From Candidatus Omnitrophota bacterium (GTDB lineage: Bacteria > Omnitrophota > Gorgyraeia > Zapsychrales > Zapsychraceae): a stretch of DNA of 64,000 bases. The notes beneath the pieces were generated by a model. It was not told the DNA's origin. It did not search any database and saw only the letters and a list, made by a program, of their open reading frames with translations. This document shows, piece by piece, positions 1,962-51,723 of the stretch. Numbering within the stretch: position 1 is the stretch's first letter; every line of letters starts with the position of its first letter. The DNA lies in the NCBI GenBank assembly GCA_029261055.1, contig JAJDCA010000066.1, forward strand, positions 157 to 64,156. Direction: 5' to 3'. A program made the translations under genes and the position numbers.

Positions 1962-2001
1962 TTAATCAAACCCAATAAAAGGACTTTAAGGAAAATACCC
2001 C

Positions 2002-2208
2002 ATGAGTGAAGTCAAATACAGTAAATCGATTAAAAAATTAGAAGAGATCATCGATAAAATCGAAAGCGAAGAAATCGATGTAGATGAACTCTCGGAAAAA
2101 GTTAAAGAGGCCGTGACACTAATCAAGACCTGCAAAGATAAAATTGAAAAAGCAGAATTGGAAGTCAAAAAAGTGGTCGATGAATTAGGGACACAAGAAA
2201 ACGATTAA
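2002..2208 (+). CDS. xseB: exodeoxyribonuclease VII small subunit
   Basis: 68 aa. Helical protein (SIKKLEEIIDKIESEEIDVDEL...) of XseB size and composition, positioned directly after xseA. Confidence 0.8.
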   Translation: MSEVKYSKSIKKLEEIIDKIESEEIDVDELSEKVKEAVTLIKTCKDKIEKAELEVKKVVDELGTQEND

Positions 2209-2211
2209 AGC

Positions 2212-2277
2212 GTCATCAGACATCAGACTTCAGCCTAACATCAATGGCTGATAACTGACGACTGAAAACTGAAAGCT
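2212..2277. repeat. GACTGA/CATCAG-rich palindromic intergenic element, copy 1
   Basis: gtcatcagacatcagacttcagcc...ggctgataactgacgactgaaaactgaaagc. Shares ctgataNctgacgactga and catcag blocks with the copy at 35045-35105. The arms are self-complementary. Confidence 0.4.
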
Positions 2278-2285
2278 ATCAAAAA

Positions 2286-3188: not shown

Positions 3189-3284
3189 TTCTAAACGTCT
3201 AGTACTTCGAGATCTCAGCAGGTAAACAATCCGGTAAATAAATTTTAAAATTTGTTTACTGGTTTGTCGATGGTTACAACATTC

Positions 3285-3817: not shown

Positions 3818-3900
3818 TGAAGTCTCCCCGGGGCAAGCCTCGAGGAATTAAATCCGTTGGAGATTGGCTAAATAATTTGTTCAGCCAATCTCTTAATTAA
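3818..3900 (+). promoter_or_regulatory. conserved leader element (GGGGCAAGCCTCG core, downstream hairpin, then TAATTAAAT), copy A
   Basis: gaagtctccccggggcaagcctcgaggaattaaat, then hairpin gagattggc/gccaatctc (3860-3892), then ttaattaaat, RBS and ATG at 3920. Related copies at 51644-51723 and 57374-57462. Confidence 0.4.
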
Positions 3901-3919: not shown

Positions 3920-4003
3920 ATGGGTGACAAAGGAAAGAAAGACAAAACAAAAAGCAATAAACAAAAACAAGATAAACAAAATAAAAAAGCAAACAAAAGC
4001 TAA
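3920..4003 (+). CDS. 27-aa lysine-rich peptide (MGDKGKKDKTKSNKQKQDKQNKKANKS)
   Basis: AAAGGAG RBS 6 nt upstream of the ATG. Preceded by leader copy A and followed by a perfect 48-bp palindrome. Below the 60-aa cutoff of the ORF track. Confidence 0.35.
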   Translation: MGDKGKKDKTKSNKQKQDKQNKKANKS

Positions 4004-4068
4004 TAGACAAACCTCATTTAGTTTGCAGGTTGTTCCCTTGAAATTAGTTAGGCCCTTAAATCGTATAC

Positions 4069-12911: not shown

Positions 12912-13615
12912 TTCTCAAAGACATTTCATTTTCAACTCCTCACGAAAATATCGCCTATGATGATACCCTTTTGAAATTGGCTGAAGAAGGGCAAGAGGGA
13001 GAGGTTCTACGATTTTGGGAATCGCCCGAAATGTTCGTTGTCCTGGGACGTATTTCCAAAGAAGAAGAGGATGTCGATAAAGAAGCCGTTACACGCGATA
13101 ATATCCCCATTTTACGCCGCTCTTCAGGAGGAGGCACTGTTTTACAAGGCCCCGGATGCCTCAATTATACGTTAATCTTATCCAAAAAATGCCGCCCAGA
13201 AGTGGCTGATTTAAAAAAATCGTATCAATATATTCTTAATAAAATCATCGCCGCCTTAGAAACCCTGGGTGTAGAGGCCTTTTTTCACCCCATATCAGAC
13301 ATAACCGTAAACAGACCCCGGGGGTCTGTTTCAACGGTTCAAACCAAAACAGACCCCCGGGGTCTGTTTACGGTTCCATTAAAAATATCAGGAAACGCCC
13401 AAAAAAGAGGACGAAACTATATTTTGCATCATGGAACCATTCTGTATGACTTTAACCTTAAAAATATCGAAAAATATCTTAAAATACCTAAAAGCATACC
13501 CGAATATCGGGAAAAACGTCCTCATCTGGACTTTGTAACGAATATCGCACTTTCAGTCACAAGTCTTAAACAAGAGGTTCAAAAACAATTTGATCAATCT
13601 GATGAAAAAAATTGA
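12908..13615 (+). CDS. lipoate-protein ligase / octanoyltransferase family (BPL_LplA_LipB catalytic domain)
   Basis: 235 aa. RRSSGGGTVLQGPG and K-ISGNAQKR (catalytic Lys) motifs. Last gene of the gcv operon, overlapping the gcvPB stop. Contains an in-frame palindromic insertion (see repeat at 13305-13373). Confidence 0.7.
   Translation: MILKDISFSTPHENIAYDDTLLKLAEEGQEGEVLRFWESPEMFVVLGRISKEEEDVDKEAVTRDNIPILRRSSGGGTVLQGPGCLNYTLILSKKCRPEVADLKKSYQYILNKIIAALETLGVEAFFHPISDITVNRPRGSVSTVQTKTDPRGLFTVPLKISGNAQKRGRNYILHHGTILYDFNLKNIEKYLKIPKSIPEYREKRPHLDFVTNIALSVTSLKQEVQKQFDQSDEKN
13305..13373. repeat. 69-bp compound palindromic element inserted in frame inside the lipoate-ligase CDS
   Basis: ccgtaaacagaccccgggggtctgtttcaacggttcaaaccaaaacagacccccggggtctgtttacgg. 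The unit aaacagacccc|ggggtctgttt occurs twice and is self-complementary. 23 codons, no stop. Encodes NRPRGSVSTVQTKTDPRGLFTVP just before the catalytic K-ISGNAQ motif. Confidence 0.5.
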
Positions 13616-13942
13616 TTTAGAAATGAAAATATTTATCAATATTTTCTCTAAAAACAAACAAAACCTGCCCCAATCTGAGAAATTATGAAGTCTCTCTGAT
13701 TCCGATTCAAGAATACCCATTACAAATTTTTCTGACAATTTCTAAATCCCCCCCTCTTTGCGCAGAATTAGAAAAAAATTTCAAATAATTTTTTATTATA
13801 CGCATAACCATATGTTATTACTATAGTTAAAATTTATAAAGAATATTTCCTCGGTGGCAATTTACCCCTTCAATATGTTATATTTATTATACGTTGAAGA
13901 AAAGACTTTCTTCCTTTCTAAATATAGCAAAAAATCAAAAAA

Positions 13943-13957
13943 ATCGCCTACGCTGAT
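13943..13957. promoter_or_regulatory. near-palindromic operator-like site ATCGCCTACGCTGAT, 33 nt upstream of the giant-protein-1 start
   Basis: Near-identical (22/24 nt) to the motif aaaatcgcctacggcgataacc at 38558-38579 upstream of the histone-like gene. Confidence 0.35.
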
Positions 13958-13989
13958 AACCAAAATTACAGTACAGGAGAAAATAAGCC

Positions 13990-16900
13990 ATGCATATTTA
14001 CACAACAAAAAAACGATCAAATTTAATGTATCGAATCCTCTCAGCATTTATTGCAATAGTATTTTTAAGCACCACTATTGTGCCGCGAGGGTATACCCAA
14101 ACAGTGGTTTTACCAACAGCCACTATACTTAATTTACCTGTGCCGGGTACGATGGTAGGCATAACCGAAGGTTTTACACCTGCGATTATCAAAGGAATGA
14201 CGATTCATCCGGATAATCCTTTGGAATTTGATTTTATTGTGGGCCGCGGTGATAAAAATTTACAAGGAGATGATTTAAAAAAAGAAGGCATCAAAATAAT
14301 CAAATATTTTCTGGCTGCACTGACAACTCCTAAAGAGGACATGTGGGTAAACCTTTCCCCGTATGAAAAGAATCGTATTATTGCCGAAGGATTCGGACAA
14401 ACTGAAATGGGAGGAGATCTTTTATCTCAAGACTATCTTTTAAAACAGCTGACATCGTCATTAATGTATCCGGAAGATGAATTAGGCGGTGATTTTTGGG
14501 AAAAAGTGCATAAAAAAGCCTATGAACAGTTCGGAACAACCGATATTCCCATGAATACTTTTAATAAAATCTGGATTGTTCCAGAAAATGCCATGGTATA
14601 TGAGCATGAATCAAGCGCATTCGTAGTAGGCCGGCATTTAAAAGTGATGTTGGAGCAGGATTTTGTAGCTATGGATCATCAAAATTCTGGCATGCAAGGC
14701 ATAAAATTTGAGGTTACGACTGACAATATTGAACGAAAAAGCACGATAACTACGGAATTAATTCGTGAAATCCTTATCCCTGAGATTGAACGCGAGGTCA
14801 ATGAAGGTGAAAACTTTGCCAATTTACGTCAAATTTATAATTCTATGATTTTGGCTACATGGTATAAGCAAAACTTGAAAGAAAGTTTATTAGGACAAGT
14901 ATATATTGATAAAAATAAAATATTAGGCGTCGATGTGGAAGATAAAGATATCAAACATAAAATTTACAATCAATATATCCAGGCATTCAAAAAGGGCGTT
15001 TATAACTATATTAAGGAGGATTATGATTCTGTAACACATCAGGTCATTCCACGAAAATATTTTTCCGGAGGAACTTTATGGGTAAACGAAATTTCAGAAG
15101 TGGATAATTTAGAGGGCATTAACCTTAAACCTAAAATGATTCCTAATAAAACAGATGCTTCAATATTAACAAGTATTGTAGATGCAGGAGATGGTGCGGA
15201 TACGATTTATATTGAAGAAGTGATGAATCAATATGATGGCTCAATGTTAACCGTTCAGAGTGAGCTGGTTAGATTGAGAAATGATTTACCTTTAAATTTT
15301 TCTGGTAATTCGGATGAAATCATGGAAATTAAGAACTGGCCAAAGGTGGAACAGACAGTGAAAAACATCTCTGATGCTACCAAACAACTAATTCTTTTAT
15401 CAACAGTAAAAAATAACCTTTTTCGAGAATCAGTTCAAAAAGAAGTAGGTTTTATTTATGCCATTGCTTATTTCAGACAGCTTCTTCCGAATGATAAAAA
15501 GAAAGTTATAGAGGATTTTAATACATTGGGCCATAAGAATACTGCTGCGTGGTTAATGGAGAATAACAATTTGCATCTTGATGAATTAAAAGCCAAAATT
15601 CAGGACAAATTTGAAATTAATCTTAATCAAGAAACGGTAGAGTATATCAAAATGCATGATGAAACGGTGCGTCGATCAAGGGGGTTACGCTTAGCGGCAG
15701 ATTCTTTGAAAATATCTACCAGTGATCTTGATGTGATTTTCAAAAATCAAAGTTTGCTTGATGTTATTTTGGGATTACGCAAAGGAGCTGTTGTTGAAAT
15801 CCGACAACCTTTAAACAATTTAGAAAAAGTGCTACGACGGCTAAGATTGGCTGAAGGAGAGGCTATTCAATTTGTTCATCTTGGAAAAAATCAATATTAC
15901 GTCTATGAAGAACATCAGCTGAAACGGTTGGCGCAGGACAATGATTTAAATTATGGATTACACAGGAGTGGACTAAACCATTTGATCCAATTGGATATGG
16001 CAAAAAAACAAGGTATATTTTTTGAAGAAGCAAATAAAACAATTAATACAGATGCCCAAAAGAATATACATAGAATAAGCAGTTCCATCACTCTTTCAGA
16101 TACAAATAGAACTATGTATTTTGACGAAAAAGAAAAATTTTGGCGTGCTGATAAAACAGCCTCCCAGATTTTTGAAATTGAAAGAGTGGGAGCAGAACGA
16201 TCATATATTGCAACTATTCAAAGGGCAAAAGGATTTAAAAATGTTTTAGAATCCCAACTTGAAAATTTTTTAATATTTAATGTACAAACCCCAATCACCG
16301 TTATTGATGATTCTAACGAAACTGAACTTGAAATTAATATAAAGACAGTTAAAGAGTTTCAAAAAAAATATCAAATAGAAATTAAACATATAACAAAAAA
16401 AGAATGGGATGAAGAGTATGGATATTATGCAAAATATTTAAAGAAAACTTGGGAACAACAGCTAAATCAAGAAGTTTTACCTAACACTATTAAAGAATTT
16501 CTTTTAGAGACTGAAATTTTGCAAAAAAATATAATTAATGATGAAAAAATAGTCGAAGTCCTGCGTAGTCCAGAATTTTATCATACGTCCGGATTTCGAA
16601 ACAGACAATTTCTGATGGCTGTAGGGGAACCGATTATCCATGGATGGGATGACGATGCCCCTGCACATGTTTACGCGGTGACCGATAAAAAACGCGATCA
16701 ACTTCGCGAAGATGCCTTAAATGACAAAAAACCAATTATGCAGAACATGTTTCAAAAAGTTGGAAAAATGATTAACACAACCATTAAAAGTGAAAAAGCG
16801 TTCTATAAAGAACTCGCTAAGAACGATAATTATGACAACCCTAAAATCAAAGAGATTCTTGACAACTATTTTGGTTATGACCCCCAAGATGATCATAAAG

Positions 16901-18765
16901 GCTTAATTCCTCAAGCAGCAGAAGAAATAATTACATTGGAAAACAAAATGGATGGCATTAATCCTTATTCTGTCCAGAGGTATTCTCCTTTTATGCGAAA
17001 ATTCATTCCAAAACAAGCTCTTAGGATGGGAGACAATTATTCCCATAAACCTAGGATAAGTGATGATAAAGAAAATACATGTTGTATCATTATGCCGGCT
17101 AATCACCTGGGGCATTCCAGACGTGTTGGGCAAAGAATAGGGGATACTAATTTCTTCCTTGGGCAGGTTCCTTATAGGGGATTACTTAATACGCCTACAA
17201 ATAAAAATGAATCAAATGATTTAAAAGATCGCACTACCCATTTTCTGGGGCATGATTTTAATAATGACATCGATACGCAGGCCGGCAAACATTTGGAAGC
17301 TTATATTAATTCAGATGATCATCATATGAAACACATACAGCATACACATCAATCTGTTCTTTTGGTTGAGGGAGCTTTTGGTTTTGCTTCACTTCTTGGG
17401 TATCCTGTTTTTAATCGTAATTCAATGTTTGTGGGCGATTTTCCTCTGCCATCTTTGGGTGGACCGCTGCGTATTGAAGAACCCAAGATGTATCGATGGG
17501 TCGTCGGCCCATTGTTACTTAACACGGTAGCAGCTGCTAATGATAATATTGCAGGCGGACAAAAGCGTCATTTAGAAAATCGATTATATCGCAATTCTTA
17601 CCAAGACCTTACCGAAGTTGTGGGAGGGAACATTGCGGGTGATTTTTACGAAGCGGCCAAAGAGAAATATTACAAAATACTTCCAGAGAAATACAAAAAA
17701 GATTTATGGGGAGATTTATATAATCGACTTATCGTTTTAGCGAATGTTTTTCTTGAAGCTGGGACTGAAGTTAATTTAACAACCAAGCATAAAGAAAAGG
17801 CCTTAGAAGAACGTCAATTGAGAGCCCAATCCATTTCACGATTAGCATTAAAACGAAGCAAGAAAGTTATTAAATTAGAGAAAAATCCAGATGAAAATTT
17901 AAAACAGGAGATAAAAGATATTGATTTAATGATTCTCGACTATGCCGATCATTTTGGTTATTACGCTCCACAAAATACTAAAAATAAAAATTATAATCCG
18001 ATAAATCCTGAAGAAGATTATTTTTATAAAATCAAGGTTGATGGAAATTATTTAAAATGGCAAGCGGTATATCCTGATATGGAAGTCGCTGATCAGAATG
18101 GAGTTTCTTCAGTCAAGAGCAGTGAATGGAAAAATTTGCAAAAAAAATCAGGTGAAACCCGACTAAGTAATTGGGTAAAAGGAGAAACTATTTCTTTAGA
18201 AAATGGCCGGTCCATTCTTTTAGACGAACTGCCAGATAACGATATTGAAATAATTGTACCGGGCTTACGCTCCGACCTTGAAAAAGAATATTTAAAAGAA
18301 GTTCAACAAATTATTATAAAACAGCTTAAAGCCGATGGTAATCAAATGATTATCTGGCCAGATATGGTTGCAGCCGCTAAGCAAAGAAAAAAAGATTCCG
18401 CCATGGCAACAAAAAATGTAAAAAATAACCTTACTTTTAATACAAAACAGACTATAAATGAAGTCGGTGGTATCGATCTTAATCCTGATTTATTAAATTT
18501 ACAAATCAAACGTGATGGAAATGGCGTGCCGTTACCAGTAGCGATGCAGCCTATTGAAAATATGCATATTGAAGGGTTTTTCCCTATTATTATCAATATT
18601 ACACCTGTCAATCTTCCACTTCTTGGTTTTGGAGACACTCTTCCGAAAGAAAACTATCCCAAACCATCACCTGAACTCAGCTTTTGGGAAGAACAAGAGA
18701 GAAAAGCTTTTCTGAGAAGTAAATTAGGTGATAGAAATACACAACTAATACAAGAAAACACCTAA
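13990..18765 (+). CDS. giant secreted protein (1591 aa) with a conserved N-terminal domain of unknown function; paralog of 53880-57287
   Basis: Uninterrupted 4.8-kb ORF with a signal-peptide-like N-terminus (MYRILSAFIAIVFLSTTIV). The first ~350 aa are ~55-60% identical to the N-terminus of the 1135-aa protein at 53880 (LNLPVPGTMV...IKG...DPL.FDF; WVNLSPYE.NRII...GQTEMG.DLL.QDYLLKQLT.SLMYPE.ELG; IPRKYFSGG). The rest is unique and carries no domain I recognise. Confidence 0.7.
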   Translation: MHIYTTKKRSNLMYRILSAFIAIVFLSTTIVPRGYTQTVVLPTATILNLPVPGTMVGITEGFTPAIIKGMTIHPDNPLEFDFIVGRGDKNLQGDDLKKEGIKIIKYFLAALTTPKEDMWVNLSPYEKNRIIAEGFGQTEMGGDLLSQDYLLKQLTSSLMYPEDELGGDFWEKVHKKAYEQFGTTDIPMNTFNKIWIVPENAMVYEHESSAFVVGRHLKVMLEQDFVAMDHQNSGMQGIKFEVTTDNIERKSTITTELIREILIPEIEREVNEGENFANLRQIYNSMILATWYKQNLKESLLGQVYIDKNKILGVDVEDKDIKHKIYNQYIQAFKKGVYNYIKEDYDSVTHQVIPRKYFSGGTLWVNEISEVDNLEGINLKPKMIPNKTDASILTSIVDAGDGADTIYIEEVMNQYDGSMLTVQSELVRLRNDLPLNFSGNSDEIMEIKNWPKVEQTVKNISDATKQLILLSTVKNNLFRESVQKEVGFIYAIAYFRQLLPNDKKKVIEDFNTLGHKNTAAWLMENNNLHLDELKAKIQDKFEINLNQETVEYIKMHDETVRRSRGLRLAADSLKISTSDLDVIFKNQSLLDVILGLRKGAVVEIRQPLNNLEKVLRRLRLAEGEAIQFVHLGKNQYYVYEEHQLKRLAQDNDLNYGLHRSGLNHLIQLDMAKKQGIFFEEANKTINTDAQKNIHRISSSITLSDTNRTMYFDEKEKFWRADKTASQIFEIERVGAERSYIATIQRAKGFKNVLESQLENFLIFNVQTPITVIDDSNETELEINIKTVKEFQKKYQIEIKHITKKEWDEEYGYYAKYLKKTWEQQLNQEVLPNTIKEFLLETEILQKNIINDEKIVEVLRSPEFYHTSGFRNRQFLMAVGEPIIHGWDDDAPAHVYAVTDKKRDQLREDALNDKKPIMQNMFQKVGKMINTTIKSEKAFYKELAKNDNYDNPKIKEILDNYFGYDPQDDHKGLIPQAAEEIITLENKMDGINPYSVQRYSPFMRKFIPKQALRMGDNYSHKPRISDDKENTCCIIMPANHLGHSRRVGQRIGDTNFFLGQVPYRGLLNTPTNKNESNDLKDRTTHFLGHDFNNDIDTQAGKHLEAYINSDDHHMKHIQHTHQSVLLVEGAFGFASLLGYPVFNRNSMFVGDFPLPSLGGPLRIEEPKMYRWVVGPLLLNTVAAANDNIAGGQKRHLENRLYRNSYQDLTEVVGGNIAGDFYEAAKEKYYKILPEKYKKDLWGDLYNRLIVLANVFLEAGTEVNLTTKHKEKALEERQLRAQSISRLALKRSKKVIKLEKNPDENLKQEIKDIDLMILDYADHFGYYAPQNTKNKNYNPINPEEDYFYKIKVDGNYLKWQAVYPDMEVADQNGVSSVKSSEWKNLQKKSGETRLSNWVKGETISLENGRSILLDELPDNDIEIIVPGLRSDLEKEYLKEVQQIIIKQLKADGNQMIIWPDMVAAAKQRKKDSAMATKNVKNNLTFNTKQTINEVGGIDLNPDLLNLQIKRDGNGVPLPVAMQPIENMHIEGFFPIIINITPVNLPLLGFGDTLPKENYPKPSPELSFWEEQERKAFLRSKLGDRNTQLIQENT

Positions 18766-18775
18766 TAAAAAAACA

Positions 18776-18803
18776 TTGACATTTTCTAAAAAAGTGATAT
18801 ATT
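18776..18803 (+). promoter_or_regulatory. sigma70-like promoter (TTGACA, 16-nt spacer, TATATT) for rplM-rpsI
   Basis: Read from sequence. The -35 plus spacer (ttgacattttctaaaaaag) is almost identical to the promoter at 42202. Confidence 0.5.
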
Positions 18804-18833
18804 TACGGTTCATCTTTTACGAGGAGAGTTTAA

Positions 18834-26403: not shown

Positions 26404-28494
26404 ATGAAAAACTTCATCTATACACTCTTATTTACCCTTAGCATCCTTTTATTTTGCCAAGCTGAGGCAGGTTTCACAAAAGTCACTTCATCAATGGATA
26501 CCAAAAAAACACCTATCCCGGCAGAAGAAATTATTCAAAAACTTATAAATACTTATGCGGTTATGGAAAACTATCAAAGTGAGGCCAAATATATAGGGCA
26601 GTTTGAAATCGATGGACAGATTGTAAAAACTGAAACGACTATGTTGATCAAATTAGGCAAGCCAAACTTATATCACATCAATTGGAAATCTCAGGAGAAC
26701 CAATTTGGCGAAAGCCCAGGAACAATTTGGAACGCCGGGAAAGGAGCATTTAAGTATACCGAATCAACAAATACTTATATCCAAATTTCAGAAATGCCAC
26801 AAGAATCATGTGAGATGAAAAATCAAAAAGAATGGTTGAATATAACAGAGCCATTGTTTGACATTTTCTTTAATTGCAACAATACCTCTTCAAAAATAAC
26901 ACAATTTAGATTAGTAGGAACAGATACGATCAACGGAGAAGACAACTACATCCTCCATCAAACCAATGATTCTTACAAACACACTTTATGGATTTCTAAA
27001 AAAGATTTCTTGATCAATAGGTATAAAAAAGAACCCCTGACAGAAGATTTAAGTATAGATGCCTTATCTGCAAGCCTGATAGATTCTTATGAAGATATGG
27101 GAATTGATCTTACTGAACAGGACAAATCAAAAATAAACAAATTTACGGGAATTTCTTATTTCTCATTAAATACAAGTGAATTTAAAAATATGCACATAGC
27201 ACTAAATTTTTATAATAATTTAATTGATGAAATAAAAGATAATAATGAATTCATATATTCTCTTCCTGAAAATGCTCAACTAAAATCATCTGAAAATATT
27301 ATTCCAAACAAAGAATCTATGCTACGCATACTAAAAAATCTAGATGGATTAAATTATACAATGTTATACACAAAAGGTCTTGAGCTTAGCGAAGAATCCG
27401 TAAGCGACCTCGAGAAAGAATTAGAAAACGATCCTTATAATTTTGAAATACGTTTGCAGATAATAGGGTATTACAGTGCTGATACTGACTCCGAAGAATA
27501 TCGCAGAATTAAAAATAAACACATTCTGTGGATTATTGAAAACCAACCGGATTATAAGGAAGGTAGTAGTATAATCTCTTCCCTATTTTATATTTTTCCT
27601 GACATTAATCCAAATGCCTATGATAAAGCCAAATCATTGTGGTTAAAACAAATTGAACTTCATAAAGATAATCCTGTTGTACTTACGAACGCATCTAAAT
27701 TTTTTTACCTTGTAGACAGTGAACTCTCAAAAGAAATTTTAAATATTGGAAAAAATATTGATCCAGATAATCTTTATTGGGAAGAAAGATTAAAATTCTT
27801 AAATTCATTAAATCCAAAAGATGGTATTCATAAAGAGTATTATGTCAACGGAAAATTAAAATTAGAGACAGAATATAAAGACGGCAAATACAATGGAATA
27901 TATAAAACATATTATGAAAGCGGCTCTTTAAAATTTGATGGAAATGTTAAAAATGGCGTTTATCACGGGATGGGAAAAAAGTATTATGAAAATGGACAAA
28001 TAAGTTTTATCGGGAATTTCAAAGAAGGAGCAAATGATGGTCTGTATAAATTTTTTCATGAAAGTGGTGAATTAATGCACACGTGTACGCAACAATTTAA
28101 AAAAGAAGGATTTACCCGAAAAGACTGCCAACAATATTCTTCAACAGGTGAAATAGAAAAAGAATATTATGCATTAATTTATAAACAGGATAAAGGTACT
28201 ACTCTGGAAAAAATATTTACAAACGATCATCTGTCTATTGAAAAAATCTATGATGAAAATGGGACTATTATAAAAGAAAAAGCATATACTAACGATGGGA
28301 AGCTAAAAGATGGCATTAATTATAACTACTATGATACTGGTAAAGTTCATTATGCACTAAATTACAAAAAGGGGATAAGAAAAGGTGTTAGTAAAGAGTA
28401 TTATGAAAACGGCAGCTTAAAAAAAGAAGTATCTTACACAAAGACGGCAAAAGAATTGGAATTTACAAAGAATTTTATGAAACTGGGGAAATAA
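26404..28494 (+). CDS. secreted MORN-variant (YwqK-like) repeat protein; apparent frameshift near 28436, with the repeat array continuing in another frame to 28583
   Basis: 696 aa. Signal peptide and a C-terminal array of YYENG.LK.E..YK.GK..G repeats. After the annotated stop, the +1 frame reads KDGKRIGIYKEFYETGEIKEEWSYKEGELIRKKKY...*, i.e. two further perfect MORN-variant repeats. Confidence 0.7.
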   Translation: MKNFIYTLLFTLSILLFCQAEAGFTKVTSSMDTKKTPIPAEEIIQKLINTYAVMENYQSEAKYIGQFEIDGQIVKTETTMLIKLGKPNLYHINWKSQENQFGESPGTIWNAGKGAFKYTESTNTYIQISEMPQESCEMKNQKEWLNITEPLFDIFFNCNNTSSKITQFRLVGTDTINGEDNYILHQTNDSYKHTLWISKKDFLINRYKKEPLTEDLSIDALSASLIDSYEDMGIDLTEQDKSKINKFTGISYFSLNTSEFKNMHIALNFYNNLIDEIKDNNEFIYSLPENAQLKSSENIIPNKESMLRILKNLDGLNYTMLYTKGLELSEESVSDLEKELENDPYNFEIRLQIIGYYSADTDSEEYRRIKNKHILWIIENQPDYKEGSSIISSLFYIFPDINPNAYDKAKSLWLKQIELHKDNPVVLTNASKFFYLVDSELSKEILNIGKNIDPDNLYWEERLKFLNSLNPKDGIHKEYYVNGKLKLETEYKDGKYNGIYKTYYESGSLKFDGNVKNGVYHGMGKKYYENGQISFIGNFKEGANDGLYKFFHESGELMHTCTQQFKKEGFTRKDCQQYSSTGEIEKEYYALIYKQDKGTTLEKIFTNDHLSIEKIYDENGTIIKEKAYTNDGKLKDGINYNYYDTGKVHYALNYKKGIRKGVSKEYYENGSLKKEVSYTKTAKELEFTKNFMKLGK

Positions 28495-29794: not shown

Positions 29795-29905
29795 AATAGA
29801 AGCAGAGAAGCAAAGAAGCAAAATGCAAAGAAAAAAACAACTAATCTAAACATTTTATCTCTCTGCCTCTTGCCGCTTTACACCTCTGCCTCTTTAAATT
29901 GGAGT
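29795..29905. repeat. GA-arm / CT-arm hairpin intergenic repeat, copy 1 (argG|argH spacer)
   Basis: aatagaagcagagaagcaaagaagcaaa...tctctgcctcttgccgctttacacctctgcctctttaaattgg. Related copies at 36301-36415 and 45291-45420. All three end in ctcttt(t)aaa just before the next gene. Confidence 0.5.
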
Positions 29906-29912
29906 TAGAACT

Positions 29913-35037: not shown

Positions 35038-35044
35038 GCCGCTT

Positions 35045-35105
35045 TCAGCCATCAGTCATCAGTAAAAAAATACTGAAGTCTGATAGCTGACGACTGATGA
35101 CTATT
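35045..35105. repeat. GACTGA/CATCAG-rich palindromic intergenic element, copy 2 (dapB|dapL spacer)
   Basis: gctttcagccatcagtcatcagt...actgaagtctgatagctgacgactgatgact. Shares ctgatagctgacgactga with the copy at 2212-2277. Confidence 0.4.
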
Positions 35106-35125
35106 AAGAAAGGATTCAAAGATCT

Positions 35126-36292
35126 ATGTCAATTTCCATCGAATTTTCCGAACGATTAAAAAATTTACCACCATACCTTTTTGTTGCCATCGATAAAGCC
35201 AAAAGAGCTGCTATGGCTGAAGGACGGGATGTTATTAATCTTGGTATCGGTGATCCGGATTCTGGAACCCCACAACATATTATTGATGCCCTTAAACAAG
35301 CGGTTGAAGATTCAGCGAATCATCATTATGCTTTGGATTCTGGCTTACCAGAATTAAGAAAAGAAATTGCTATCTGGTTTCAAAACCGCTTTCAAGTATC
35401 TCTGGATATTGATTCAGAAATATATCCTCTCATCGGAACTAAGGAAGGGTTGGCCCATTTACCTTTAGGCATTATTAACCCTAAAGACAAAGTGCTTCTT
35501 ACAGATCCAGCTTACCCAGCATACCGGCCTTCCATTGAATTTGCCGGAGGAAAAATCGTTAATATCCCTTTAAAAGCTAATCGTGGATTTTTACCAGATC
35601 TAGAAAAGATTGAAAAAATGAGGGATGTTAAAATGTTGGTGATTAACTACCCCAACAATCCAACCGCCACAACAGCAACCAAAGAATTCTACACAGACTT
35701 AGTAAAACTCGCTCAAGAAAAAGAATTTATCATTGTCTCAGATATGGCCTATTCAGAAGTTTATTACGATGGAGAAAAACCTCTTAGCATCCTGGAAATT
35801 GATGGGGCAAAGGATGTTGCCATAGAATTTCATTCTTTATCTAAGACATATTACATGACTGGCTGGCGTATTGGATGGGCTTGTGGTAATCCAACGCTTG
35901 TGGCAGCTCTGGCTAAAGTCAAATCAAACTTTGATTCTGGTATTTTTCAAGCAATTCAAGTGGCTGGTATTGCAGCCTTAAAAAGTGATCCTCAAATCAC
36001 TGAAGACATGCGCACACTTTATCAAGATAGACGCGATTATCTTGTAAATGGACTAAGAGGCATCGGGTGGAAAGTGCCCGCACCTCAAGCCGCTTTCTAT
36101 GTTTGGGCTAAAATTCCAAAAGGATTTTCCAGCTCTATGGAAACCTCAAAAGCATTTTTGGACAAAGCCGATATCGTGGCTACCCCTGGAAATGGATTTG
36201 GAGAGGCAGGGGAGGGTTACATTCGCATGGCGCTTACTGTTTCAAAAGACCGAATTAATGAAGCCGTAGAAAGATTACGAAAGGTTTTGTAG
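35126..36292 (+). CDS. LL-diaminopimelate aminotransferase-type class-I aminotransferase (DapL-like)
   Basis: 388 aa fold-type-I aminotransferase (NLGIGDPD, SKTYYMTGWRIGW). Sits directly after dapFAB, and no dapD/dapC/dapE is present, which is consistent with the DapL route. Confidence 0.65.
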   Translation: MSISIEFSERLKNLPPYLFVAIDKAKRAAMAEGRDVINLGIGDPDSGTPQHIIDALKQAVEDSANHHYALDSGLPELRKEIAIWFQNRFQVSLDIDSEIYPLIGTKEGLAHLPLGIINPKDKVLLTDPAYPAYRPSIEFAGGKIVNIPLKANRGFLPDLEKIEKMRDVKMLVINYPNNPTATTATKEFYTDLVKLAQEKEFIIVSDMAYSEVYYDGEKPLSILEIDGAKDVAIEFHSLSKTYYMTGWRIGWACGNPTLVAALAKVKSNFDSGIFQAIQVAGIAALKSDPQITEDMRTLYQDRRDYLVNGLRGIGWKVPAPQAAFYVWAKIPKGFSSSMETSKAFLDKADIVATPGNGFGEAGEGYIRMALTVSKDRINEAVERLRKVL

Positions 36293-36300
36293 TCTATTTA

Positions 36301-36415
36301 AATATAGAAGCAAGATGCATAGAGGTAAGAGGCAGAGAATAAAAACATTAGTTAGCTTTATTTTTTGCTTTGCTTCTTGTGTCTCTATTTCTCTGCTTCT
36401 TTAAATAGGAAGGAA
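36301..36415. repeat. GA-arm / CT-arm hairpin intergenic repeat, copy 2 (dapL|folK spacer)
   Basis: aatatagaagcaagatgcatagaggtaagaggcagagaat...ttttttgctttgcttcttgtgtctctatttctctgcttctttaaatagg. The two arms are reverse complements of each other. Confidence 0.5.
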
Positions 36416-36420
36416 AAGAT

Positions 36421-36852
36421 TTGGAAACCGTTTACCTTGGGTTGGGTTCCAATATGGGAAATCGTCAAGAAAACATCAAAAAATCCTTAGAACTTTTAGA
36501 AAACAATTTGATCAAAATTCTAAAATGCGCAACGATTATTGAAACCGATCCCGTAGGAGGACCTAAACAGGATAAATACCTCAACACAGTTGCCGAGGCT
36601 AAAACCTCATTGTCCCCACAAGATTTACTTACACAACTCCATCAAATCGAGAAACAACTCGGTCGTATTCGAACCATCAAAAATGGACCACGTCCTATTG
36701 ATATCGATATTCTTCTTTATGGAAATATAAATATACAAACACCTCAACTTACTATTCCACATCCGCGCATGCTGAAACGCGATTTTGTGATGATCCCACT
36801 TAAAGAAATTTCTCCTAAAACGGTAGAGGCATTGCTCCATGCGCGTCATTAA
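36421..36852 (+). CDS. folK: 2-amino-4-hydroxy-6-hydroxymethyldihydropteridine pyrophosphokinase
   Basis: 143 aa. VYLGLGSNMGNR N-terminus and PRPIDIDILLYG motifs of HPPK. Apparent TTG start. Confidence 0.8.
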   Translation: METVYLGLGSNMGNRQENIKKSLELLENNLIKILKCATIIETDPVGGPKQDKYLNTVAEAKTSLSPQDLLTQLHQIEKQLGRIRTIKNGPRPIDIDILLYGNINIQTPQLTIPHPRMLKRDFVMIPLKEISPKTVEALLHARH

Positions 36853-37687
36853 ATCCATAAAATCAATCCGAACCTTCCTTAAAACGATAAAAATAAAAAA
36901 TAAAAGAATCGGCCTTGTCCCGACTATGGGAGCCCTTCATAAAGGACACCTTTCGCTTATACAAAAATCTCGACGAGAAAATGACATTATCATCTTAAGT
37001 ATTTTTGTAAACCCAAAACAATTCGGTCCAAAGGAGGATTTCACCCAATATCCTCGACAAGAAAAAAAAGATGAATTATTGGCAAAAAAAGAAAAAGTTG
37101 ATATAATATTTTATCCGTCGGTCGAGGAGCTTTATCCGAAGGATTATTTGACATACGTTTTTGTTGACGAATTAGGTGAAAAATTATGCGGCCAGTCACG
37201 ACCAAATCATTTTCAAGGCGTTACAACTATCGTCGCTAAACTTTTAAATATCATTACCCCTGATACATTGTATCTAGGGCAAAAAGATGCTCAGCAGGTC
37301 ATTATTATAAATAAAATGATCCAAAATTTAAATATTCCTGTAAAAGTAAAAACCTGTCCTATTATTCGAGAACCTGACGGACTTGCCATGAGTTCACGTA
37401 ATCGTTATCTTTCAAGCCGCCAACGAAAAGAAGCCCCAATCCTTTTTCAATCACTCAAATCAGCTAAAAAAAGAATTCAAAAAGGCGAACACAGAAGCGC
37501 AGCTTTGCTTCAAATGATCCAATCTAATATTGAAAGAAATAGTTCCGGCCGTATTGATTATCTTGAATGCGTAGACAATCAATCACTAAACCCTTTAAAA
37601 AAAATTACATCAAGTGGTATGATTGCTCTGGCTGTAAAATTTGGTTCTACACGACTCATAGATAACATTGAATTTAAAATAAAATGA
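36839..37687 (+). CDS. panC: pantoate--beta-alanine ligase
   Basis: 282 aa. VPTMGALHKGHLSL HIGH-type motif. Confidence 0.9.
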   Translation: MRVIKSIKSIRTFLKTIKIKNKRIGLVPTMGALHKGHLSLIQKSRRENDIIILSIFVNPKQFGPKEDFTQYPRQEKKDELLAKKEKVDIIFYPSVEELYPKDYLTYVFVDELGEKLCGQSRPNHFQGVTTIVAKLLNIITPDTLYLGQKDAQQVIIINKMIQNLNIPVKVKTCPIIREPDGLAMSSRNRYLSSRQRKEAPILFQSLKSAKKRIQKGEHRSAALLQMIQSNIERNSSGRIDYLECVDNQSLNPLKKITSSGMIALAVKFGSTRLIDNIEFKIK

Positions 37688-38514
37688 AATCAAGAAATTA
37701 CAAAGTTAAAATTGGTATTGTTGGCTGTGGCGCGATTGGATCCCGAATGGCACAAGCTATTCATCACGACTTTAAGGATGATTGCAAAATATCTGGACTC
37801 TACGACATCAATGCAAAAAAAACTGAAGAACTTGGTAAGAAACTATCCCTCAAAAAATCGCTCTACACTCTATCGCTCCCGGAACTGATAAAAACCTGTG
37901 ATTGTATGGTTGAAGCTATAAACGCAGAAAATACACTTGATATTATTCGTCAGGCATTGAAAGCCAAAAAAAGTGTCTTAGCTATGAGCGTAGGCAAACT
38001 TCTAAATGCTCAAGATTTATTTCAACTAGCCAGAAAAAACCGACGATATATTCTATTGCCTTCCGGAGCAATCGCCGGTATTGACGCTATAAAAGCTGCA
38101 AGCCTTGTTAATGTTAAGAAAATTACACTCACCTCAAGCAAGCCTCCTCAGGGGTTTAAAAATAATCCTTATTTCCTTGAAAAGAAAATTGATGTGTCTA
38201 AGATAAAGAGGAAGACAATACTATTTGAAGGAGATGTGAATACGGCTGTAAAACTTTTCCCGCAAAACATCAATGTTGCTGCAACTTTAGCGCTTGCTTG
38301 TCAAGTAAGGAAAAAAATACACATTCGTATTATCACTTCTCCTAAATATAAAACAAATTCGCATGAAATTGAAATGACAGGAGACTTTGGTAGCTTAATA
38401 ACAAAAACGGATAACGTTATTTGTCCCGACAACCCGAAATCAAGTTACCTAGCCGTGCTGTCAGGACTACAAACTTTAAAACAATATTGCACCGGTATAG
38501 TGATCGGAACATAA
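37684..38514 (+). CDS. aspartate dehydrogenase-like protein (NAD-binding; DUF108-type)
   Basis: 276 aa. KIGIVGCGAIGSRMAQAI Rossmann N-terminus and the general layout of L-aspartate dehydrogenases. Function inferred only. Confidence 0.5.
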   Translation: MKSRNYKVKIGIVGCGAIGSRMAQAIHHDFKDDCKISGLYDINAKKTEELGKKLSLKKSLYTLSLPELIKTCDCMVEAINAENTLDIIRQALKAKKSVLAMSVGKLLNAQDLFQLARKNRRYILLPSGAIAGIDAIKAASLVNVKKITLTSSKPPQGFKNNPYFLEKKIDVSKIKRKTILFEGDVNTAVKLFPQNINVAATLALACQVRKKIHIRIITSPKYKTNSHEIEMTGDFGSLITKTDNVICPDNPKSSYLAVLSGLQTLKQYCTGIVIGT

Positions 38515-38560
38515 ATACGCTTGTACAAAACTAAGTATTACCCTTTTTCTATCCAAGAAA

Positions 38561-38575
38561 ATCGCCTACGGCGAT
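38561..38575. promoter_or_regulatory. perfect palindrome ATCGCCTACGGCGAT, 85 nt upstream of the histone-like gene
   Basis: Read directly. The 22-bp context matches 13940-13961. Confidence 0.35.
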
Positions 38576-38659
38576 AACCTGAAGCGATTTTTAATGCCGA
38601 TAGGAAAGTTTAATACTTTTTTATACGGAAAAAATTAATAAGAAAGGAGGAACACACAC

Positions 38660-39088
38660 ATGGCCAAGAAAGTTGCAAAAGTTGGTATAAAAAAAGAGAG
38701 TGGATATCTTTATTTTGTCGACAAAGCTGGTGATATTTCTTGTGCAAAGATGGCCCGTGGCAACAAAAAAGGGGGTAAACCCAAAAAAGTTGCAAAAGTC
38801 GGTATAGAAAAAGAATCAGGATTTCTTTACTTCATCGACAAAAACGGAGATATCTCCTGCGCTAAGATGGTTCGTGGTGGAAAGAAAAAGAAAGCCACTA
38901 AGAAAAAAGCCGCTAAGAAGACAACGAAGAAAAAAGTAGTTAAAAAAGCAACAAAGAAAACAGCAACAAAAAAAACAGCTACTAAGAAAAAAGCTGTCAA
39001 AAAAGCTGTAACAAAGAAAAAAGCAACAAAGAAAACAGCTACTAAAAAAAAAGCTACTAAGAAAAAAGCAACAAAAAAAAGAAAATAA
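38660..39088 (+). CDS. lysine-rich histone H1-like basic protein with a duplicated ~35-aa N-terminal module
   Basis: 142 aa. Two copies of KKVAKVGI.KESG.LYF.DK.GDISCAKM.RG, followed by a K/A/T-rich tail (KKKATKKKAAKKTTKKK...). Strong RBS AAAGGAGG. Confidence 0.6.
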   Translation: MAKKVAKVGIKKESGYLYFVDKAGDISCAKMARGNKKGGKPKKVAKVGIEKESGFLYFIDKNGDISCAKMVRGGKKKKATKKKAAKKTTKKKVVKKATKKTATKKTATKKKAVKKAVTKKKATKKTATKKKATKKKATKKRK

Positions 39089-39128: not shown

Positions 39129-40406
39129 ATGTGCCTGGGCCGTCTTGAAATAATGAAGAGATATACTATGTTTAATCGTCCAATAAAATCAATTGTTATT
39201 TTTCTTACCCTATTCAACATTCTCTGCATGTGGAACTTAAAATCAGGCTATGCGGAGAAAAGCAAAGAAGGCATCATCAAAGAATTTTATCCTGATGGAT
39301 CCTTAGAGACTCAACGACACTATAAAGCCAATAAACTTAATGGAAAAAGTCAAACATTTTACAATAACGGCCAATTAATGAGTGAAGCAACCTACAAAGA
39401 TGATATCCTTAATGATACTTACAAAACTTTTTATGAAAATGGTAAAACATATTTTATTAAAAGATTTAACAAAGGAATTCAAGATGGTGAAGCTAAAGAA
39501 TATTATGAAAATGGCCAATTAAAAAGTGAAGAAACTTACGTCAACGACAAACTACAAGGTTTAAGTAAATATTATTTTGATGATGGTCAACTTAAATATT
39601 TTATGAATTTTAAAAAGGGCCAGTTAGAAGGAATCAGTAAAGAATACTACCAGAATGGAAAAATAAAAAGCACTGTTACCTATAAAGATGGGAAGTGGCA
39701 TGGATTAGTAAAAGAACACGAGGAAACCGGACATTTAATAGCTGAATGGGAATATCTCAATGGGAAAAGAAACGGTATTTCCAAAATCTTTTATCCTGAT
39801 GGTAAATTAAAATGGAAAGCAAATTTCAAAAATGATGAAATGAATGGCCCCAGTCTTGCCTTTGCCAAAAACGGCCAACAAATCATGGAAACAAATTTTA
39901 ACCAAAATAAATTGCATGGGCTCGTTACAGAAAACTATTCAGATGGAACATTAAAACGTGTTTCTCATTATAAAAATGACTTAAAAAATGGCCTTACAAA
40001 AGAATACTTTGAAAATGGCACATTAAGCCTCGAACGACATTATAAAGAGGCTAGAGAAGTAGGCGTTTCAAAAGAATATTATGAGGATGGAAGCCTCTGG
40101 ATTACAAGAACCTACTTAAATGAAAATAACGATGGAACATTGCGAGAATATTACGAAACAGGTGAATTAAAACAACAATGGATCATAAAAAACGGCCTCA
40201 TTCATGATATCAGTAAGTCCTACTACAAAATTGGCAAATTAATGACCGAAGAATACTATTTTGAAGGAAAGAAAAATGGTATCAGCCGTCTATACCGCCA
40301 AAATGGATCAATCGTCTATGAAGATACATACATGGATGGCGCCAGAATAAACCGAAAAATGTTTGATGAAAACGGAAAAATAATACAACCCGCCGATAAA
40401 AACTAA
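39129..40406 (+). CDS. secreted MORN-variant (YwqK-like) repeat protein
   Basis: 425 aa. Hydrophobic N-terminus, then about 14 repeats of the YYENGQLK.E..Y...K.G form. The start may instead be 39144. Confidence 0.7.
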   Translation: MCLGRLEIMKRYTMFNRPIKSIVIFLTLFNILCMWNLKSGYAEKSKEGIIKEFYPDGSLETQRHYKANKLNGKSQTFYNNGQLMSEATYKDDILNDTYKTFYENGKTYFIKRFNKGIQDGEAKEYYENGQLKSEETYVNDKLQGLSKYYFDDGQLKYFMNFKKGQLEGISKEYYQNGKIKSTVTYKDGKWHGLVKEHEETGHLIAEWEYLNGKRNGISKIFYPDGKLKWKANFKNDEMNGPSLAFAKNGQQIMETNFNQNKLHGLVTENYSDGTLKRVSHYKNDLKNGLTKEYFENGTLSLERHYKEAREVGVSKEYYEDGSLWITRTYLNENNDGTLREYYETGELKQQWIIKNGLIHDISKSYYKIGKLMTEEYYFEGKKNGISRLYRQNGSIVYEDTYMDGARINRKMFDENGKIIQPADKN

Positions 40407-42201: not shown

Positions 42202-42229
42202 TTGACTTTTCTAAAAAAAGCACTATAAT
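42202..42229 (+). promoter_or_regulatory. sigma70-like promoter (TTGACT, 16-nt spacer, TATAAT) for the IMPDH-family gene and guaA
   Basis: Read from sequence. The spacer is nearly identical to the rplM promoter. Confidence 0.5.
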
Positions 42230-42282
42230 ATAGCTTTAATTTACCCGCAAAATACCCACAATTCAATTGGAGGAAAATATAC

Positions 42283-43541: not shown

Positions 43542-45287
43542 ATGCCAAAAACAACTAAAAAAGCCCCTGTAAAGAAAAAAACAGCAACCAAAAAAGTAGT
43601 CACTAAAAAAGCCCCCTTAAAACCAAAAAAGAAAGTCGGTTTAAAAACACGATTCAAGGTTAACCCCAAAAAAAGTATTGGAAAACTCCCTAAACTACGA
43701 AAAATTAAGGGACGCGTCAGTGCTACAGTAAAAATCAAAAAAATACGACACAAAGATGTTATGTTAATCCTTGATTTTGGTTCCCAATATACCCAACTCA
43801 TCGCTCGTCGCATTCGAGAAAATAAAGTTTATAGTAAAATTGTACCTTATACTATTAGCCCCGATGAAATCCGAGAACTAAATCCAAAAGGAATTATTCT
43901 TTCCGGAGGCCCTTTAAGTGTTTATGACAAAAATGCACCGACCCCTTCCAAAGAAATATTTAAAATGGGGATTCCAATTCTCGGCATCTGTTATGGTATG
44001 CAGATTATAACTGAAATTTTTGGTGGTAAAGTTAAATCAAGCAACGAAAGAGAGTTTGGACGCGCTGAACTATTTGTCGACAGCAATAAAGATCTTTTTA
44101 CAAATCTTCCATCTAATTTAACCAGCTGGATGAGCCACAGTGATGAAATTAAAAAAATTCCTACAGGCTTCGTCAAACTCGCGCATACACTTAATGCCCC
44201 TGTTGCTGCTTTTGCTAACCGTGCAAAGAAAATTTATGGTGTACAATTTCACCCGGAAGTTGTTCATACTCAACGTGGTGTTCAAGTCTTAACCAACTTT
44301 GTTTTTCATATTTGTGGATGTCTCCCTCGATGGACAATGGATAAATTCATCAATGCTTCCATTAAACAAATCAAAGAAAAAGTTGGCACCAAAAAAGTTA
44401 TTCTTGGTTTAAGTGGTGGGGTTGACTCTGCTGTAGCTGCTGCCATGATTCATAAGGCTATTGGAAAAAGACTATATTGTGTTTTTATCGACAATGGACT
44501 GTTACGAAAAAATGAACTGACCTCCGTCCAAAAAACATTTAAAACAAATTTAAACATGAATTTAACATGTGTCAGTGCCGAAAAAGGATTTTTAACCCGG
44601 CTAGAAAATATCACCGACCCTGAAGAAAAAAGAAAAATTATCGGGGATGAATTCATAAAAGTTTTCCAAAATAAATCTAAAAGAATTAAGAATGCTTCTT
44701 TTCTGGCCCAAGGCACACTTTATCCAGATGTTATAGAATCCCATTCTCCGACAGGAGGGCCATCGGCTGTCATTAAAAGCCATCACAATGTTGGAGGACT
44801 CCCTAAAAACCTTAAGTTTGAACTTATCGAACCTTTGCGCGAACTTTTCAAAGATGAAGTCCGTGCGATTGGAAAGCGCCTTGACCTCCCGGAAAACATC
44901 CTTAAGCGACAGCCATTTCCTGGACCTGGACTTGCTATTCGTATCATTGGTGCGGTAACCCCAGAACGCCTGGAAATACTTAGAGAAGCCGATGAACGCG
45001 TACTTGATGAAATCAAAAAAGCCGGCCTGTATAATGAGATTTGGCAGTCTTTTGCGGTATTACTTCCTATAAAAACTGTTGGCGTTATGGGAGACCAAAG
45101 AACCTATGAAAATGTTATCGCCATCAGATGTGTAAACAGTCAGGATGGCATGACGGCAGACTGGGTACAATTGCCACACGAAATTCTTGGAAAAATATCT
45201 AACCGCATTATTAATGAAGTCAACGGTGTTAACCGTGTCGTTTACGATATAAGCTCTAAGCCTCCCGCAACGATTGAATGGGAGTAA
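43542..45287 (+). CDS. guaA: GMP synthase (glutamine-hydrolysing), with ~70 in-frame K-rich codons ahead of the conserved GATase start (possible N-terminal extension)
   Basis: GATase region [19 protein letters not shown]...GICYGMQ, ATP-PPase region GLSGGVDS and a conserved C-terminal dimerisation domain. The first ~70 codons are [18 protein letters not shown]... Confidence 0.9.
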
Positions 45288-45290
45288 TTA

Positions 45291-45420
45291 ATAGAAATAA
45301 AGAAGCAGAGAAGCAAGAGACAGAGAAGCAGAGAAAAACCTTTGTTTCTCTGTGCCTTTGCCTCTTACTTCTCGTAATATCTCTACCTCTTGCATCTCTA
45401 CTTCTTGCCTCTTTTTAAAA
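45291..45420. repeat. GA-arm / CT-arm hairpin intergenic repeat, copy 3 (guaA|dnaE spacer)
   Basis: aatagaaataaagaagcagagaagcaagagacagagaagcagagaaaaa...tctctgtgcctttgcctcttacttctcg...cttgcctctttttaaaat. Confidence 0.5.
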
Positions 45421-51643: not shown

Positions 51644-51723
51644 GAATCTCCTCGGGGCAAGCCTCGGGAAATTAGACCCTTTTGGAATTTCTTTAAAACT
51701 AGAAATTCCTAATTAAATTAAAC
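51644..51723 (+). promoter_or_regulatory. conserved leader element, copy B, within a ~320-nt 5' leader
   Basis: gaatctcctcggggcaagcctcgggaaattag, then hairpin ggaatttct/agaaattcc (51684-51709), then taattaaattaaac. Confidence 0.4.

Follow-up and report, generated by a model that had tools for sequence, protein, structure and literature searches.

Gene X, a long-tailed orthologue of an unnamed two-module protein of Candidatus Omnitrophota, and the short repeat upstream of it

Gene X and its lysine-rich tail

We have analyzed a stretch of 64,000 nucleotides (nt) from a Candidatus Omnitrophota bacterium (contig JAJDCA010000066.1, assembly GCA_029261055.1), hereafter called the window, with a GC content of 38%. 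The subject of the analysis is a small gene, here called gene X (38660..39088, plus strand, stop codon included), together with a short repeated sequence that precedes it. Gene X starts with ATG and encodes a basic protein of 142 amino acids (aa), with pI 10.7 and a net charge of ~+48. It is preceded by a strong Shine-Dalgarno sequence, AAGGAGG (38644..38650, plus strand), situated 9 nt 5' of the start codon.

The first half of the protein is comprised of two tandem modules, each with a single cysteine, which confirms from the sequence what an earlier note on this DNA had reported; each module is predicted to form three beta strands. Module 1 (38663..38761, plus strand; residues 2-34) reads AKKVAKVGIKKESGYLYFVDKAGDISCAKMARG and carries Cys28 (38741-38743); module 2 (38780..38878, plus strand; residues 41-73) reads PKKVAKVGIEKESGFLYFIDKNGDISCAKMVRG and carries Cys67 (38858-38860). 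The repeat units K3-G34 and K42-G73 are offset by 39 aa (117 nt), and the modules are identical at 28/35 protein positions and at 78% of the DNA positions. The net charge of the core, that is, of the protein without its tail, is ~+11.5.

The remaining 68 residues (75-142; 38882..39085, plus strand) form a tail consisting of 54% K, 21% T, 18% A, and 6% V, with a net charge of ~+37. It is encoded by a tandem array of a 15-nt (5-aa) unit present in 13.3 copies. The earlier note had described the tail as being of the H1/Hc1 type, and in terms of composition this was borne out. The name "histone H1-like" is apt for the composition of the tail alone, as no H1, Hc1, or HU domain was detected.

Such a long tail is unusual among the close relatives of gene X. 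In the 149 closest orthologues the tail length varies from 1 to 27 aa with the median of 9 aa, compared with 68 aa in gene X by the same measure. A full-length database search revealed no long-tailed close relatives, the longest being a protein of 107 aa. The exact sequences of gene X and of the aspartate dehydrogenase of the window were both absent from the collections searched, which accordingly lack the source genome and its close relatives. At the same time, a K/R-rich C-terminal tail is present in all stand-alone members of the family, and in the close orthologues this tail is short without exception. Moreover, at least 12 distant representatives have independently acquired long tails rich in K, R, A, T, and P (e.g., P0122, P0153, P0154, and P0223/P0225). 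The tail of gene X would have reached 68 aa through tandem amplification of the 15-nt unit, and the amplified tail would constitute an H1/Hc1-like polycationic arm.

A second lysine-rich segment was observed in the open reading frame of guaA (GMP synthase), where the GATase domain, starting at residue 75, is preceded by a 72-aa N-terminal extension rich in K, T, A, P, and V (43542-43757), located ahead of the usual beginning of the protein. This could be either a real polycationic extension or the result of a mis-placed start codon.

The two-module family and its predicted fold

Judging by its sequence, gene X is the local, unusually long-tailed orthologue of an unnamed and very strongly conserved protein of ~80 aa from Candidatus Omnitrophota. 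A search with residues 1-78 yielded 1,932 proteins (90%-identity clusters). The best 120 of these 1,932 matches are 78-92% identical to the query, have the length of ~75-102 aa, and all contain two modules, with a Pfam domain in none. All matches to the core with a named source are annotated as "hypothetical protein" and come from Candidatus Omnitrophota or Omnitrophica. When 1.84 billion representatives were scanned exhaustively with HMMER, 768 clusters at 50% identity were retrieved (E ≤ 0.001).

The consensus of the core module, xEKVxKxGIxRExGYLYFxDKxGDISRxxMxRG, is about 33 aa long, and the invariant core residues include many lysines and arginines. In gene X, the family motif G[YF]LYF[IV]DKxGD[IV]SC..M.RG occurs twice and is followed by the basic tail; the invariant columns are common to gene X and its best matches. 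Among the best 150 representatives, 83 contain two modules conforming to the strict motif, and a few contain 3-6. The earlier note had asked whether the module is duplicated in orthologues; it is, as the orthologues always have two modules. Residues specific for one of the modules (MARG vs. MVRG, FVDK vs. FIDK) are kept across the orthologues, and hence the duplication is old rather than recent. The same note had failed to recognize the N-terminal unit. Indeed, no described family matched it; however, the module is not private to gene X, but defines a large family.

Distant relatives were found on a Woesearchaeota contig and in Endomicrobium, the former meaning that the family reaches archaea. 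On the Woesearchaeota contig (L024), a classical archaeal histone (CBFD_NFYB_HMF) is encoded together with a stand-alone two-module member, at 937-1152 (minus strand) and 3001-3249 (plus strand); therefore, the family coexists with histones in archaea. A tblastn search with the core against the INPHARED phages and PLSDB plasmids produced no match.

The cysteine of the module is present in 237/239 modules of the Omnitrophota-type set. In the wider family, the same position is occupied by arginine in 158 of the 230 modules, by lysine in 21, and by cysteine in 19. The cysteine has thus taken the place of a conserved basic residue in this one clade and is not a defining feature. We also considered a small zinc-ribbon protein and rejected it, as this would need four Cys/His ligands in two knuckles, whereas gene X has only two cysteines, one per module, at the position held by arginine in most modules of the wider family.

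Searches for known families with both the complete protein and the core yielded no match in Pfam (none at E ≤ 10), NCBIfam, or PADLOC. In PHROGs, there were only two partial sub-threshold matches to families of unknown function, one of them to phrog_9154, faint at E 5e-4. Searches of PDB sequences with the two-module and single-module profiles produced chance matches only. One of the PDB matches, an EF-hand-like "DKDGDIS", was rejected, being out of register with the calcium loop. In the literature on nucleoid-associated or histone-like proteins of Omnitrophota, we found only a survey of prokaryotic histones, and the family is not described there.

With a diverse alignment of 57 sequences, AlphaFold2 predicted the structure of the core with pLDDT (predicted local distance difference test score) of 91.8 and pTM (predicted template modeling score) of 0.75, all five models having pLDDT of 85-92; with a shallow alignment, only one of the five models was confident. 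The core model is all-beta, with six strands, three per module, and no helix. Foldseek found nothing at E < 0.4 in PDB (searched with two models) and BFVD, and no PDB chain at E < 1, the best template modeling score being ~0.27. The core is thus a fold confidently predicted by modeling, with no known-family or structural match in these searches. The two modules would pack as one small all-beta globule, followed by the basic tail.

A short repeat upstream of gene X

Between the aspartate dehydrogenase gene and gene X lies a spacer of 145 nt, which contains a sequence found at another location in the window. In the spacer, this repeat (copy 2; 38554..38579, plus strand) reads CAAGAAAATCGCCTACGGCGATAACC, while copy 1 (13936..13961, plus strand), CAAAAAAATCGCCTACGCTGATAACC, ends 28 nt 5' of the ATG of a gene encoding a secreted protein of 1591 aa (13990-18765). 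This latter protein, called giant protein 1 in the earlier note, carries a signal or transmembrane segment at its N-terminus; no Pfam domain was found in it at E ≤ 1e-4. The identity of the copies, previously given as 22/24, was measured at 20/22 (13940-13961), 21/24, or 23/26 (13936-13961 vs. 38554-38579), depending on the length compared. In 100 shuffles, we found no matches to the 22-mer with up to three mismatches, and in the window as a whole there were three pairs of 22-mers with at most two mismatches and GC ≥ 45%, compared with 0.1 per shuffle. The similarity of the two copies is unlikely to be due to chance.

Copy 2 holds a 6+3+6 inverted repeat, ATCGCCTACGGCGAT (38561-38575), that is, ATCGCC-N3-GGCGAT with 6/6 arm pairs and a non-symmetric 3-nt spacer. 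The perfect palindrome of the earlier note is not seen, as the reverse complement of this sequence differs from it at three positions. At copy 1, the corresponding segment (13943-13957) reads ATCGCCTACGCTGAT and retains 4/6 arm pairs, the dyad being broken at two positions.

In the source genome, the motif search covered the 64-kb window, where a third, weaker match (12943-12968) lies inside a lipoate-ligase-like coding sequence and encodes ENIAYDD. Pattern scans for AAATCGCCTACGNNGATAACC produced seven matches in genome_contigs, four in metagenome_contigs, and none in viral_contigs. All but one of them were chance matches in coding sequences of high-GC or unrelated taxa (e.g., KIAYGDN in L005). 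The exception is L006 (CAZEQA010000011.1), a contig from an unrelated metagenome-assembled genome with 41% GC labeled Planctomycetia. Its segment 2102-2142 contains CAAGAAAATCGCCTACGGCGATAACC, a 3-nt indel, and GAAGCGATTTT, and is identical to the gene X spacer at 37/41 positions, with a weaker likeness continuing over ~80 nt. The L006 copy is located antisense inside an intact murD gene (1543-2898, minus strand). No other DNA similarity was observed between the window and the 8-kb L006 locus.

Two coding explanations of the repeat were rejected. The frame KKIAY[G/A]DN is open at both sites and in L006, but it lacks a start codon, and a leader peptide was rejected for this reason. That the spacer is a fragment of a murD pseudogene is not supported either, the tblastn match (26 codons, interrupted by a stop) having an insignificant E of 0.34.

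The 22-26-nt sequence is a real repeat, best treated as a short dispersed one, common to these genomes and apparently not tied to promoters. At the two genes of the window, it falls within transcribed leader or spacer DNA. Candidate explanations are a remnant of coding DNA, a small mobile repeat, and an RNA element. Known short dispersed repeats include REP/BIME elements and the Rickettsia palindromic elements, the latter capable of residing in-frame in genes. The repeat resembles them in that a short hairpin-forming sequence is found at several unrelated places, two intergenic and one in murD. It differs in the number of copies, three being known here, and in showing neither terminal structure nor target duplication; on the 64 kb covered, any kinship with these elements would be conjectural.

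In the earlier note, the repeat was suggested to bind the same dimeric regulator at both genes. On this view, ATCGCC-N3-GGCGAT would be an operator through which a dimeric transcription factor co-regulates gene X and the gene of the 1591-aa protein. The two copies are on the same strand, in intergenic regions directly 5' of the two genes, with the 20/22 identity where none is expected by chance, and copy 2 has a clean 6-bp dyad. A short 6-3-6 inverted repeat 5' of one gene and a similar sequence 5' of another are also characteristic of the operators of dimeric helix-turn-helix regulators. However, such operators would show a dyad at the second site and conservation of position and across relatives, which are missing here. 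Not only is dyad symmetry lost in part at copy 1, but also the distance from the motif center to the start codon is ~92 nt for gene X and ~40 nt for the 1591-aa protein gene. No canonical sigma-70 promoter overlaps either copy, although the genome uses TTGACA-17-TATAAT elsewhere, and in the 64 kb there is no further copy besides the one inside a coding sequence. Upstream regions of orthologues were fetched for ten loci, eight of them independent (L002 and L004 duplicate L001 and L003), and the motif was absent from all eight. Moreover, in seven of the eight the spacer between the upstream aspartate dehydrogenase gene and the gene X orthologue with its strong Shine-Dalgarno sequence is only 17-47 nt, leaving no room for the motif. 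Since the dyad is broken, the motif is absent at the eight orthologous loci, and the homologous copy of L006 resides inside murD, the shared regulator is unsupported, and we consider the operator quite improbable. Even if true, it would matter little, as it concerns two genes of one genome.

Two canonical sigma-70 promoters of the window, at 18775-18810 and ~42215-42250, have nearly the same -35 box and spacer, TTGAC(A/T)TTTCTAAAAAA(A)G..TATA(T/A)T.

As the RNA of the gene X spacer is predicted to be structured, a role at the RNA level is as plausible as one at the DNA level. The shared sequence might then act as a leader or spacer hairpin, either terminating transcription weakly or marking a processing site after the aspartate dehydrogenase gene, or else stabilizing mRNA or binding a protein. 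The spacer (38515-38662) folds at -29 kcal/mol (z -3.3). A predicted stem, AAAAUCGCC / AGCGAUUUU (38557..38592, plus strand), encloses the inverted repeat, and its pairing recurs in the L006 copy in the centroid fold, not in the minimum-energy fold. The stem AAAAUCGC/GCGAUUUU, with U residues after it, is seen in the copy of the window and, for L006, in the centroid fold. A second leader hairpin (38597..38628, plus strand; -11.7 kcal/mol, z -4.7) ends ~15 nt 5' of the Shine-Dalgarno sequence. In addition, the likely promoter of the 1591-aa protein gene (13861-13890) would place copy 1 in the 5' untranslated region. However, the enclosing stem is absent at copy 1, which has neither a hairpin nor the 3' arm, the hairpins taken alone are marginal (z -1.9), and no Rfam match was found in the window at the gathering threshold or in the spacer at the E-value threshold. 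The structure does not look like a canonical terminator either, as the loop has 18 nt, or else the U-run is 9 nt beyond a short stem; the scan for intrinsic terminators flagged the gene X spacer hairpin on the minus strand only. Overall, the RNA hairpin seems an unlikely explanation.

The window contains other repeated and hairpin-forming sequences. A GC-rich sequence of ~45 nt, TCTCC(C/T)CGGGGCAAGCCTCG(A/G)G(G/A)AATTA..., occurs with 79% identity in two intergenic regions (3821-3865 and 51645-51689). Each copy is followed by a separate hairpin with a T/A-rich run, at 3859-3895, 5' of a tiny lysine-rich open reading frame, and at 51683-51708, 5' of a small open reading frame at 51876. The tiny frame (3921-4004), directly 3' of the repeated element, has a good Shine-Dalgarno sequence and encodes a 27-aa lysine-rich peptide, MGDKGKKDKTKSNKQKQDKQNKKANKS. 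The ~45-nt sequence looks like a leader or riboswitch-like element; Rfam, searched at the E-value threshold, gave no match to it. Long imperfect inverted repeats were observed in intergenic regions at ~29795-29910, 36295-36420, and 45290-45420, and also at 2170-2285 and 35040-35125. They have a purine-rich arm (AGAAGCAGAGAAGCAA...) followed by a pyrimidine-rich one (...CTCTGCCTCTTGC...), or arms of the CATCAGTCATCAG / CTGATGACT type, and appear to form a hairpin family, possibly of terminators. Finally, a GC-rich near-palindromic pair, AAACAGACCCC(C)GGGGGTCTGT, is found twice, 38 nt apart, at 13308-13367, in the 3' part of the LplA-like open reading frame (12908-13615).

Proposed function and comparison with known chromatin proteins

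Gene X follows a block of metabolic genes (35126..38514, plus strand) encoding an aminotransferase (35126-36292), HPPK/folK (36421-36852), panC (36839-37687), and aspartate dehydrogenase (37684-38514). The order aminotransferase-folK-panC-aspartate dehydrogenase-X is found in the window and in L001, L003, L016, L019, L021, L022, and L026, and in every Omnitrophota-type orthologous locus fetched, the gene X orthologue is located directly 3' of the aspartate dehydrogenase gene. GGAGG-type Shine-Dalgarno sites are present in all orthologous loci. The downstream gene is uvrA in the six loci where it could be identified (L001, L003, L016, L021, L022, and the more divergent L026); for L019, whose downstream gene has no Pfam call, the conserved order is that of aspartate dehydrogenase and X only. 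In the window, the usual place of uvrA 3' of gene X is taken by a MORN_2 repeat gene, followed by a GAF-HD protein. The distant, long-tailed P0122 (L025) has a different location, adjoining greA and recG. MORN_2/YwqK-like repeat proteins are encoded in the window at 26404-28494 and 39129-40406, and all credible genes of the 64 kb are on the plus strand, an extreme strand bias.

In several proteins, the module pair is fused to other domains. In P0166, the partner is an HNH endonuclease (E 1e-13); in P0158, a region matching the PADLOC candidate family PDC-S18 (E 2e-12) and, weakly, NucS; and in P0146, a region of a phage D5-like transcriptional regulator (E 6e-9). These fusions, the charge of the core, its invariant lysines and arginines, the universal and repeatedly lengthening tails, and the adjacency to uvrA (and once to recG/greA) all point to a role involving nucleic acids. 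Given the charge, tails, and fusions, our favored reading, put at about an even chance, is that the gene X family comprises non-specific DNA-binding, nucleoid-type proteins, in which the globule docks and the tail neutralizes charge. Binding would be sequence-non-specific, to nucleic acid and most probably to chromosomal DNA. The basic globule, with its pseudo-symmetry, would sit on the duplex, while the phosphate charge would be neutralized by the disordered lysine tail, which would also condense or bridge DNA, as other nucleoid-associated proteins do. The replacement of arginine by cysteine in each module of Omnitrophota could add redox or metal sensitivity.

Several observations weigh against a DNA-binding role. 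Other fusion partners of the module pair are OmpA, TonB_C, DoxX, transmembrane segments, and GAF+RING, which a pure DNA-binding role does not predict, and the membrane and periplasmic fusions may fit a general cytoplasmic adaptor or ligand-binding module as well. The very high conservation fits a ribosome- or RNA-associated protein equally well. Besides, the support for nucleic-acid binding comes from charge, tails, and three or four domain fusions.

If the two-module unit is a general cytoplasmic adaptor that binds ligands or proteins, the lysine tail of gene X could be a neutral low-complexity expansion with no chromatin role. The N-terminal position of the module pair in membrane and periplasmic proteins would be natural for such an adaptor, as would its occurrence with GAF+RING and zinc ribbons. 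Tandem arrays like that of the 15-nt unit can expand by slippage, and the lysine-rich extension before the GuaA domain is the second one in the window. Against this view, basic tails are found on all stand-alone proteins and have been extended independently on many occasions, lysines and arginines are numerous among the invariant core residues, and the fusions to nucleases and a regulator region do exist. We consider the adaptor rather improbable.

The main rival is a small basic protein that associates with RNA or the ribosome. It could be an RNA chaperone, or a ribosomal or ribosome-accessory protein restricted to the lineage. Between genomes, the cores are 80-90% identical, compared with only 52-57% for PanC and aspartate dehydrogenase of the same loci, a difference typical of ribosomal proteins. 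The size of ~80 aa, the strongly basic character, the strong Shine-Dalgarno sequence, and the usual co-transcription in a housekeeping gene block are consistent with this as well. Still, gene X is situated outside ribosomal-protein operons, and the conserved neighbor in the family is uvrA. Moreover, instead of RNA-processing domains, the fusion partners are an HNH nuclease, a nuclease-like region, and a D5-like regulator region, and Foldseek produced no significant match to a ribosomal protein. This alternative seems unlikely to us.

Returning to the nucleoid-type protein, a more far-reaching version is tentative and, on balance, doubtful: the core might have a previously unrecognized nucleic-acid-binding fold and serve Omnitrophota as their main chromatin protein, its relatives being found in DPANN archaea and Elusimicrobiota. 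Such a protein would be a bacterial counterpart of Cren7/Sul7d, with the tail length tuning compaction and the cysteine pair responding to redox state or metals. Omnitrophota are abundant, mostly uncultivated nanobacteria. The family combines high conservation relative to its metabolic neighbors, the lack of a name, Pfam model, or structural neighbor, a confident all-beta model, and the reach into archaea. Should the nucleoid protein prove true, it would bring a new fold to the few known chromatin proteins of prokaryotes and offer a natural series of tail lengths, from 1 to 68 aa, for the study of polycationic tails. The 8-kDa core is a concrete and cheap target for such work.

Among known chromatin proteins, the H1-like K/A-rich group includes chlamydial Hc1/Hc2, the C-terminal domain of linker histone H1, AlgP, and mycobacterial Hlp/MDP1; long disordered K/A/T-rich tails condense DNA via charge neutralization. 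Gene X is similar to these proteins in having a long K/A/T-rich disordered tail on a small folded domain, whereas its close orthologues have tails of 1-27 aa only. The winged helix of linker histones H1/H5 is absent (no Pfam match at E ≤ 10, and the predicted core is all-beta), so that what gene X shares with them is the K/A-rich C-terminal tail, and this in composition only. Likewise, the N-terminal domain of chlamydial Hc1 was not found by Pfam and NCBIfam. The HU/IHF fold (Bac_DNA_binding) with its beta-arm was not found either, there being no Pfam match and no predicted helices.

The crenarchaeal proteins Cren7 and Sul7d/Sso7d have a length of 60-80 aa and a mostly beta structure. They are monomeric and rich in lysine, bind double-stranded DNA non-specifically, and are strongly conserved within one lineage. 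We found no sequence or profile likeness of the gene X core to them (hhalign probability ~0.1%), and no PDB chain was retrieved by Foldseek at E < 1. According to the model, the core is an internal duplication of a three-strand unit and apparently not the SH3-like barrel of Cren7/Sul7d. Still, Cren7 and Sul7d provide the best functional analogy, as the core, too, is small, basic, beta-rich, and strongly conserved in one lineage.

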